Of a stretch of 7,230 bases of DNA, positions 1,992-2,264 are shown in pieces. A program made the translations under genes and the position numbers. The DNA comes from a virus. Its lineage: Duplodnaviria > Heunggongvirae > Uroviricota > Caudoviricetes. The notes beneath the pieces are model-generated. The model had not been told where the DNA came from. It made no database searches and saw nothing but the letters and a program-made list of their open reading frames with translations. How positions within the stretch are numbered: the stretch's first letter is position 1; each line of letters begins with the position of its first letter. Where the stretch lies: positions 1 to 7,230 of IMG/VR virus record IMGVR_UViG_2547132270_000006; one strand, written 5' to 3'.

Positions 1992-2264
1992 ATGGACAAT
2001 AGCACCATTTCTCTACAGGAGTTGCTCGACTGCATTTCCAAGCTTCGGGATGATGTAAATGCCCTTACTGTCGCATTTTCATATCTGGCATTCTCAATTC
2101 CCAAGGAACAAATGCAACCAACACTGGCATCGCTCCAGCTTGAATCACTCAACCCCAAATGGTCCCAGCAACAACAAAATTCTTTCAAGTGGCTGGCGGT
2201 ATTACTGGAAGAAAAATATGCTGGTGAAATTACCATTTCGGCGGAGTCTTCAGAGAACCAGTAA
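1992..2264 (+). CDS. Hypothetical small protein (90 aa) encoded convergently inside the lysis cassette
   Basis: ATG at 1992 with AGAGAGGA 6 nt upstream (the track starts at a TTG at 1986). Protein-like translation (MDNSTISLQELLDCISKLRDDVNALTVAFSYLAFSIPKEQ...), AT-rich by eye. The 3' end overlaps the 3' end of the DUF1327 gene by 35 nt. Confidence 0.45.
   Translation: MDNSTISLQELLDCISKLRDDVNALTVAFSYLAFSIPKEQMQPTLASLQLESLNPKWSQQQQNSFKWLAVLLEEKYAGEITISAESSENQ

Follow-up and report, generated by a model that had tools for sequence, protein, structure and literature searches.

Introduction

The classical morons of the lambdoid phages are the lambda genes bor and lom. Gene bor is a neighbour of the lysis cassette, and its transcription opposes that of the late operon. 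Bor is a lipoprotein and Lom an outer-membrane protein; both products belong to the envelope, and both genes have known promoters and are expressed in the lysogen. The moron concept itself reportedly goes back to Juhala and Hendrix. Lambdoid phages also employ short non-coding cis-antisense regulators, among them OOP RNA of lambda and sar of P22.

Here we analyse a 90-codon open reading frame (ORF) that lies antisense to the lysis genes of an Escherichia coli prophage, at positions 1992–2264 on the plus strand of a stretch of DNA of 7,230 nucleotides (the whole of which is referred to as the window). Like bor and lom, the ORF is an optional single-gene unit placed between genes that are adjacent in related phages; it sits in the Q–lysis–terminase region, runs against late transcription and has a GC content below that of its flanks. 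Unlike them, it is predicted to encode a cytoplasmic acidic helical protein, which has no sequence or fold relation to Bor or Lom, and its promoter, terminator and expression are inferred only. As with OOP and sar, its transcription would be convergent to a phage operon and extend across a 3' end. In contrast to these RNAs, it contains a 90-codon frame on which selection acts at the protein level and which is retained outside phages as well.

A further comparison is offered by the IraM-like anti-adaptor genes of sister prophages, which are likewise small cytoplasmic protein genes antisense to the late operon and are found within 1–2 kb, just upstream of the holin gene (L087, 3107–3320; L113, 3569–3892). 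In a Stx2k phage such a gene sits between stx2AB and the holin gene. These genes set a precedent for small proteins that a prophage encodes to modulate those of its host, although the 90-aa protein shows no detectable homology to IraM or IraP (hhalign probability below 1%).

As a genomic feature the ORF is an ordinary moron acquisition in a lambdoid late region, comparable to bor, and it indicates no new mode of lysis control. We put the probability at roughly 60% that it is a moron-type accessory gene, transcribed independently in the lysogen, whose acidic helical product binds a cytoplasmic partner.

Results

Organization of the lysis region

The window shows, in reversed orientation, the late region of an E. 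coli prophage of lambdoid (Rac/Qin-like) type, with the lysis genes on the minus strand. The cassette begins with a class II (S21-type) holin gene (2579–2794; PF04971), followed by ydfR (2230–2574), which encodes a 114-aa DUF1327 protein (PF07041, E = 4e-42), by the endolysin gene R (1353–1886; phage lysozyme, PF00959) and by Rz with the embedded Rz1 (919–1371; PF03245). The 90-codon ORF, a member of PHROG 2411, reads from an ATG at 1992 to a TAA ending at 2264 and is convergent with ydfR and thus with the late operon. All coordinates given in the preliminary description proved correct on rechecking: the 3' ends of the ORF and ydfR overlap by exactly 35 nt (2230–2264), and the spacer between ydfR and the endolysin gene, put there at about 340 bp, measures exactly 343 bp (1887–2229). 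The start codon of R and the ATG of the ORF, on opposite strands, are 105 nt apart.

The longest plus-strand frame, 1986–2264, opens with a TTG, while the ATG at 1992 yields the 90-aa product. Since the upstream TTG is not kept in homologs (it is TTA in locus L089), we take ATG 1992 to be the start. PGAP uses the same start in identical and near-identical prophages, under the label 'hypothetical protein'. A Shine–Dalgarno sequence, AGAGGA (1980–1985), precedes the ATG by 6 nt, and a GAGG-type motif is retained by most relatives compared, including those of Citrobacter, Sodalis and Serratia, and is weaker in the IncF and Klebsiella members; the good ribosome-binding site noted earlier is confirmed. 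The ORF had also been called AT-rich. Its GC content (44.3%, and 41.9% for the inserted segment described below) does fall below that of ydfR (47.5%) and R (52.2%), the window averaging 48.4%, but the difference is mild. This modest departure from the composition of the neighbouring genes is of the kind expected of a moron.

An optional cassette in a polymorphic slot

Most of the ORF lies on a 292-bp cassette (1943–2234) that takes the place of about 19 bp in what we call 'empty' phages. The cassette is missing, with clean breakpoints, from the collinear phages PhiR40_1, 611R1, 606R7 and PhiR49_2, where ydfR and R are separated by only 63 bp. It supplies codons 1–82 of the ORF; codons 83–90 and the stop codon come from the ydfR-homologous flank. 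Among 5,426 complete E. coli genomes the segment was found in 1,154–1,221 and the flanking lysis cassette in 4,337, and about three quarters of the genomes that have this lysis cassette are without the segment. Its placement is highly regular where it does occur: the distance of 105 nt from the R start to the ORF ATG is seen at all 80 IMG/VR loci, and the overlap with ydfR is 35 nt at 79 of them and 32 nt at the remaining one.

The proposed comparison of holin-to-endolysin spacing in related phages thus revealed the presence or absence of a segment at this exact position, between two genes that in close relatives directly or almost directly adjoin each other. This is the comparative signature of a moron and supports the suggestion that the ORF might be one. 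The accompanying view that the spacer is unusual needs qualification. It is long compared with K-12 Qin, where ydfR and rrrQ overlap by 4 nt, but it represents one of at least four to five common states of this junction.

Two further states contain antisense ORFs that are unrelated to the one studied here. The first encodes 86–88 aa (PHROG 2572) and is present in 314 genomes, for example in phage 2H10 and strain S88; the second encodes 79 aa (PHROG 21218) and is present in 103 genomes, for example in phage Perceval. Both lie on the plus strand and extend into the 3' end of ydfR (L097, 743–1009, plus; L098, 770–1009, plus; L116, 950–1210; L117, 971–1210). They are absent from the annotation of the phage records and are called by PGAP. 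Comparison of the 90-aa protein with the 2H10 and Perceval products by hhalign found no kinship. The slot thus accommodates three interchangeable antisense small genes, which goes beyond the routine. Insertion sequences have also entered the region: in strain WGS1363, ISEc52 separates R from the ORF (L091, 260–1429), and in strain PM4 IS1A lies inside the matched region.

The preliminary description considered the C-terminal tail of YdfR odd and a possible trace of an insertion. The insertion did not create this tail, as the sequence NVWITYKGKLPGRITGSLKTPP is unchanged in insert-less phages; what the junction does alter is the last residues alone, KW before the stop codon here and ESQP there. 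Across YdfR variants residues 1–77 are common, and at least four different C-terminal ends occur, varying with the content of the downstream slot.

Selection on the reading frame

By its length alone the ORF is within the range of chance: spurious antisense ORFs of 100–130 codons are numerous in the window and several of them exceed it. Comparative evidence lifts it above chance, because the frame stays open, substitutions are in excess at third codon positions and the gene recurs in independent contexts. We compared homologous DNA from 80 IMG/VR contigs, from complete E. coli genomes at 85–92% nucleotide identity and from two distant copies, the most divergent found in E. coli (∼74% nucleotide and 57–60% protein identity). 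Differences from the two distant copies at codon positions 1, 2 and 3 numbered 18, 19 and 45 (chi-square p = 2e-4) and 23, 19 and 44 (p = 2e-3) respectively. The corresponding dN/dS values were 0.23–0.27, with 0.33–0.45 for closer lineages. The frame was open in all diverged lineages compared, down to 57–60% amino acid identity, whereas in neutral simulations with an equal number of substitutions it stayed open in only 3.2–3.6% of cases. Poor conservation of the frame had been named beforehand as an observation that would speak against the gene; the opposite was found. The comparisons show that the plus-strand ORF is a genuine protein-coding gene under purifying selection.

Low dN/dS values do not by themselves identify the coding strand at this locus. 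On the lysis strand, a 110-codon mirror ORF (1967–2299, minus) has its third codon positions in common with the plus-strand ORF, and its dN/dS (0.16–0.38) is as low because these wobble positions are shared. Its internal ATG overlaps the stop codon of ydfR (AAATGGTAA). In loci L084, L085 and L087–L091 the minus frame contains one to three stop codons, and the plus frame is open in every one of them; the plus-strand ORF is therefore the selected frame, and the mirror ORF is ruled out as a true gene. The case shows that a mirror ORF with shared wobble positions mimics purifying selection, and that only the survival of stop codons separates the two strands.

Broken alleles do occur. Three nonsense alleles were seen among about 90 loci, and several frameshifted variants of 94 aa are present in the protein database, far outnumbered by clusters of intact 90-aa proteins. 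Selection on the gene in prophages is consequently not strict. The 94-aa variants P0046, P0049, P0051 and P0058, which represent three allele backgrounds, all shift into the open +1 frame (ORF 2059–2277) near codons 58–60, at about 2160–2180 of the window. Their common shift point may be an ascertainment effect, as only shifts into an open frame give a long ORF, or it could mark a mutable site or a sequencing error.

Properties and predicted fold of the protein

The product is a protein of 90 aa and 10.2 kDa with a pI of 4.3 and a net charge of about −6.5. It matches the PHROG 2411 profile over its entire length (residues 1–90 of 90, E = 2.2e-59), and the distant members described below match the same profile. 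The annotations of hundreds of genomes include an identical or near-identical protein, and PGAP names the family 'hypothetical protein' (WP_000370550-like). The gene is thus already annotated and clustered, in a family that lacks a described function. A literature search by names, peptide, accessions and PHROG number found, in the library covered, neither a paper on the gene or its family nor any transcription or translation data, and a more general one on morons and lysis cassettes brought up nothing that concerns it.

AlphaFold2, run with a 22-sequence alignment, predicts a three-helix bundle (helices 8–35, 38–52 and 59–77) with a pLDDT of 82.5 and a pTM of 0.61; the five models are concordant (81–82.5) and a run with 18 sequences agrees. 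Residues 83–90 are predicted to form a disordered tail, which comprises exactly the residues encoded by the ydfR-side flank. Inspection revealed neither a signal peptide nor a membrane-spanning stretch, the longest hydrophobic run being about 13 residues. Neither the protein nor its distant relatives found a relative in Pfam, NCBIfam, PADLOC (E ≤ 0.1) or sequence searches of the PDB, and Foldseek searches of the PDB and BFVD returned nothing below E = 0.6. The homology and structure searches that had been proposed therefore gave a family and a confidently predicted fold, but no relative that points to a function. Kinship with IraP, IraM and BssS was considered and rejected (hhalign probabilities of 0.04–0.3%). 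The protein does not resemble a component of the lysis machinery: it is encoded on the opposite strand, carries no Pfam lysis domain and is predicted to be acidic and soluble. The PADLOC result likewise gives no assignment to a defence family.

Family members beyond the lysis cassette

Profile searches confine the PHROG 2411 family, which is small, to the Enterobacterales, with homologs in five genera other than that of the host. Several members lie apart from any lysis gene. In a pathogenicity island of UPEC F11 an intact 90-aa copy with 60% identity, which bears the UniRef name 'Ybl58', adjoins iha amid IS remnants, and this type of copy is found on at least 1000 contigs. Its flanks keep traces of the start region of R and of the 3' end of ydfR, so we regard it as a relic of a lysis cassette from which the lysis genes themselves have gone. 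Another group resides on IncF plasmids. Searches matched 76 plasmid records, 70 of which are conjugative, and 72 carry an 89-aa copy with 61–64% identity. Two of the plasmids were inspected, and in both a gene pair for a heptosyltransferase and an AIDA/TibA-like autotransporter precedes the copy, which is located ∼300 bp downstream.

Chromosomal copies are found in Serratia and in Sodalis ligni. At least six Serratia species carry an unnamed ortholog of 92–93 aa between dinI and bssS, in the order pyrC–dinI–X–bssS–solA (L106–L111 and L115; at about 3971–4252 in L107). These orthologs, such as WP_038875495.1, are distant homologs (∼38% identity by tblastn), and their dN/dS of 0.06–0.18 reflects strong purifying selection. 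The existence of selected copies that stand alone shows that it is the protein that carries the function, and that lysis genes in cis are not required for it.

In prophages of Citrobacter and Klebsiella, family members again run against the late region; the Citrobacter gene is located upstream of the holin gene and the Klebsiella gene upstream of the terminase genes. Both converge, with an overlap of 14–20 nt, on genes for proteins of 62–63 aa that start with MTLEQ (L093, 5242–5430, minus; L099, 5251–5436, minus). The two small proteins are homologous to each other (pairwise E = 7e-7), and their tail, KITGSLRAP, resembles the tail RITGSLKTP of E. coli YdfR (E = 0.005). We rejected them as DUF1327 members, as neither the DUF1327 nor the YdfR PHROG profile matches; the weak tail motif remains.

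Only three deposited phage genomes contain the gene, among them the environmental isolate Chlobot and the Stx2k-converting phage phiSTEC1575-Stx2k. In the latter the gene is still attached to ydfR although the downstream endolysin module has been replaced. Its presence in viable phages such as these two means that the gene does not block lysis.

Candidate transcription signals

A scan of 1700–2700 with strict consensus patterns detected no promoter or terminator on the plus strand. By eye, a candidate promoter can be proposed at 1902–1930 (TTTATC at 1902–1907, a spacer of 17 nt and TATGTT at 1925–1930), together with a weaker candidate at 1947–1977 (TTGAAT and TACAAT, 19 nt apart). Both match only 7–9 of the 12 consensus positions, and the second, which would place the start site within the Shine–Dalgarno sequence, is for that reason doubtful. 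The first lies in the 56-nt segment between the start codon of R and the cassette. This segment is found in every ORF-bearing version of the slot, that is with all three unrelated cassettes, in the iha relic and in the Stx2k phage without R, and the four 'empty' phages have CAGGTT where the ORF-bearing versions have TATGTT. The 'empty' phages are a single lineage, so the contrast counts as one evolutionary observation, and retention of the segment could merely reflect module boundaries that fall at gene starts. We accordingly treat the TATGTT/CAGGTT contrast as a lead and not as a result.

A candidate terminator, the hairpin GCGCCUC/GGGGCGC followed by UUUU, lies at 2307–2333 on the plus strand, about 45 nt past the stop codon and inside the coding sequence of ydfR. 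In the iha copy the hairpin is perfect, and a separate hairpin with a U run accompanies the Citrobacter gene. No U run follows the hairpin on the minus strand, and late transcription should therefore not stop there. Inspection of the upstream regions in E. coli and Serratia by eye gave no conserved match to a LexA box or a sigma-54 motif.

Discussion

The data are most consistent with a moron-type gene that works through its protein. It would have a transcript of its own, probably driven by a weak sigma-70-like promoter within the 56-nt segment and terminated at the hairpin at 2307–2333. Expression would take place in the lysogen while the late operon is silent, and the product would not be a lysis protein but would bind a partner in the cytoplasm, either from the host or from the phage. 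Any interference with late transcripts would then be a by-product of the orientation of the gene.

In one alternative, the protein would serve YdfR as a dedicated partner, for instance as its antagonist, and the two convergent genes would form a module. According to a 2026 report (PMC13232886), K-12 YdfR interacts with the catalytic, N-terminal half of RNase E and co-purifies with RNA, to which it possibly binds. The gene is attached to the 3' end of ydfR in all its E. coli phage contexts, phiSTEC1575-Stx2k included; the iha copy retains a ydfR remnant; and the Citrobacter and Klebsiella relatives converge on small genes whose products have a tail similar to ITGSLKTP of YdfR. That tail similarity is weak, however, and the 62–63-aa proteins miss both profiles. 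Most ydfR-bearing prophages lack the gene, and the copies in Serratia, Sodalis and the IncF plasmids have no ydfR nearby; such stand-alone copies argue against an obligate pair. We consider a dedicated partnership with YdfR unlikely.

The preliminary description also raised antisense control of the lysis genes. Here convergent transcription would be the main function: the plus-strand RNA would collide or pair with the late RNA and tune endolysin production or the timing of lysis, the ORF being secondary. The convergent orientation and the nearly invariant overlap with ydfR would suit this, as would the fact that three unrelated ORF families occupy the slot, all antisense and all entering the 3' end of ydfR; the members from Citrobacter and Klebsiella likewise oppose the late region and have short 3' overlaps. 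Against it, the third-position excess, the low dN/dS and a frame that is open at 57–60% identity show constraint at the level of the protein. These properties, and an Rfam scan of 1900–2350 that gave no match, set the locus apart from non-coding cis-antisense RNAs. Some three quarters of the genomes with this lysis cassette manage without the segment. The family is, moreover, strongly conserved where lysis genes are missing, in Serratia, Sodalis and the IncF plasmids, and since intact homologs (that of the iha island among them) persist in such places, an antisense RNA cannot be the main function of the gene. As a main role, then, antisense control did not hold up and is improbable. A secondary antisense role is possible, given that all three slot occupants have the antisense orientation.

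A bolder proposal would combine several of these elements and regard the ydfR–R junction as a slot dedicated to antisense expression. Beside the endolysin start, one weak promoter common to all occupants would drive any of at least three unrelated small genes; the PHROG 2411 protein would be a lysogen-expressed partner or antagonist of the RNase E-binding YdfR; and the core gene between dinI and bssS of Serratia would be the cellular ancestor of the regulator. If true, the expression of lysis genes would be tied to the RNA metabolism or the stress state of the host. This proposal is a long shot. The weakest explanation, that the ORF is a chance frame or that the lysis strand carries the true gene in the form of the 110-codon ORF, its internal ATG placed over the ydfR stop in the style of translational coupling, is hardly credible: spurious antisense ORFs as long as this abound in the window and the minus frame has equally low dN/dS, but the stop codons in its diverged homologs refute it, and its product is Ser/Cys-rich and of low complexity whereas the plus-strand product has a confidently predicted fold and homologs in other genera.

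The protein-coding moron that we favour is widespread, being present in roughly one-fifth of complete E. coli genomes, including laboratory B strains (REL606, where it is gene ECB_RS07100). Its paralogs ride with virulence loci, namely iha islands and autotransporter-bearing IncF plasmids. The strongly conserved chromosomal ortholog in Serratia and these travelling paralogs lift the gene beyond a routine moron. A small family with no Pfam model, purifying selection and a conserved Serratia ortholog make it tractable for functional work on small proteins.

Two other features of the window deserve mention. On the minus strand, 4563–4761 gives Rfam matches to isrK (77 bits), to C4 antisense RNA (71 bits) and to the a1/b1 target of the latter (50 bits). 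These matches lie downstream of a Q-like gene (4789–5184) and directly upstream of the anti-repressor gene ant (3947–4510, minus; PHROG 2379), and the region looks like an antisense-controlled anti-repressor module of the P1 immI or Gifsy isrK type. Between the anti-repressor and holin genes, a further ORF antisense to the late region (3064–3603, plus) encodes a 179-aa DUF2441 protein (E = 1e-6; PHROG 5663) for which the PADLOC scan gave no match; it is probably another moron.
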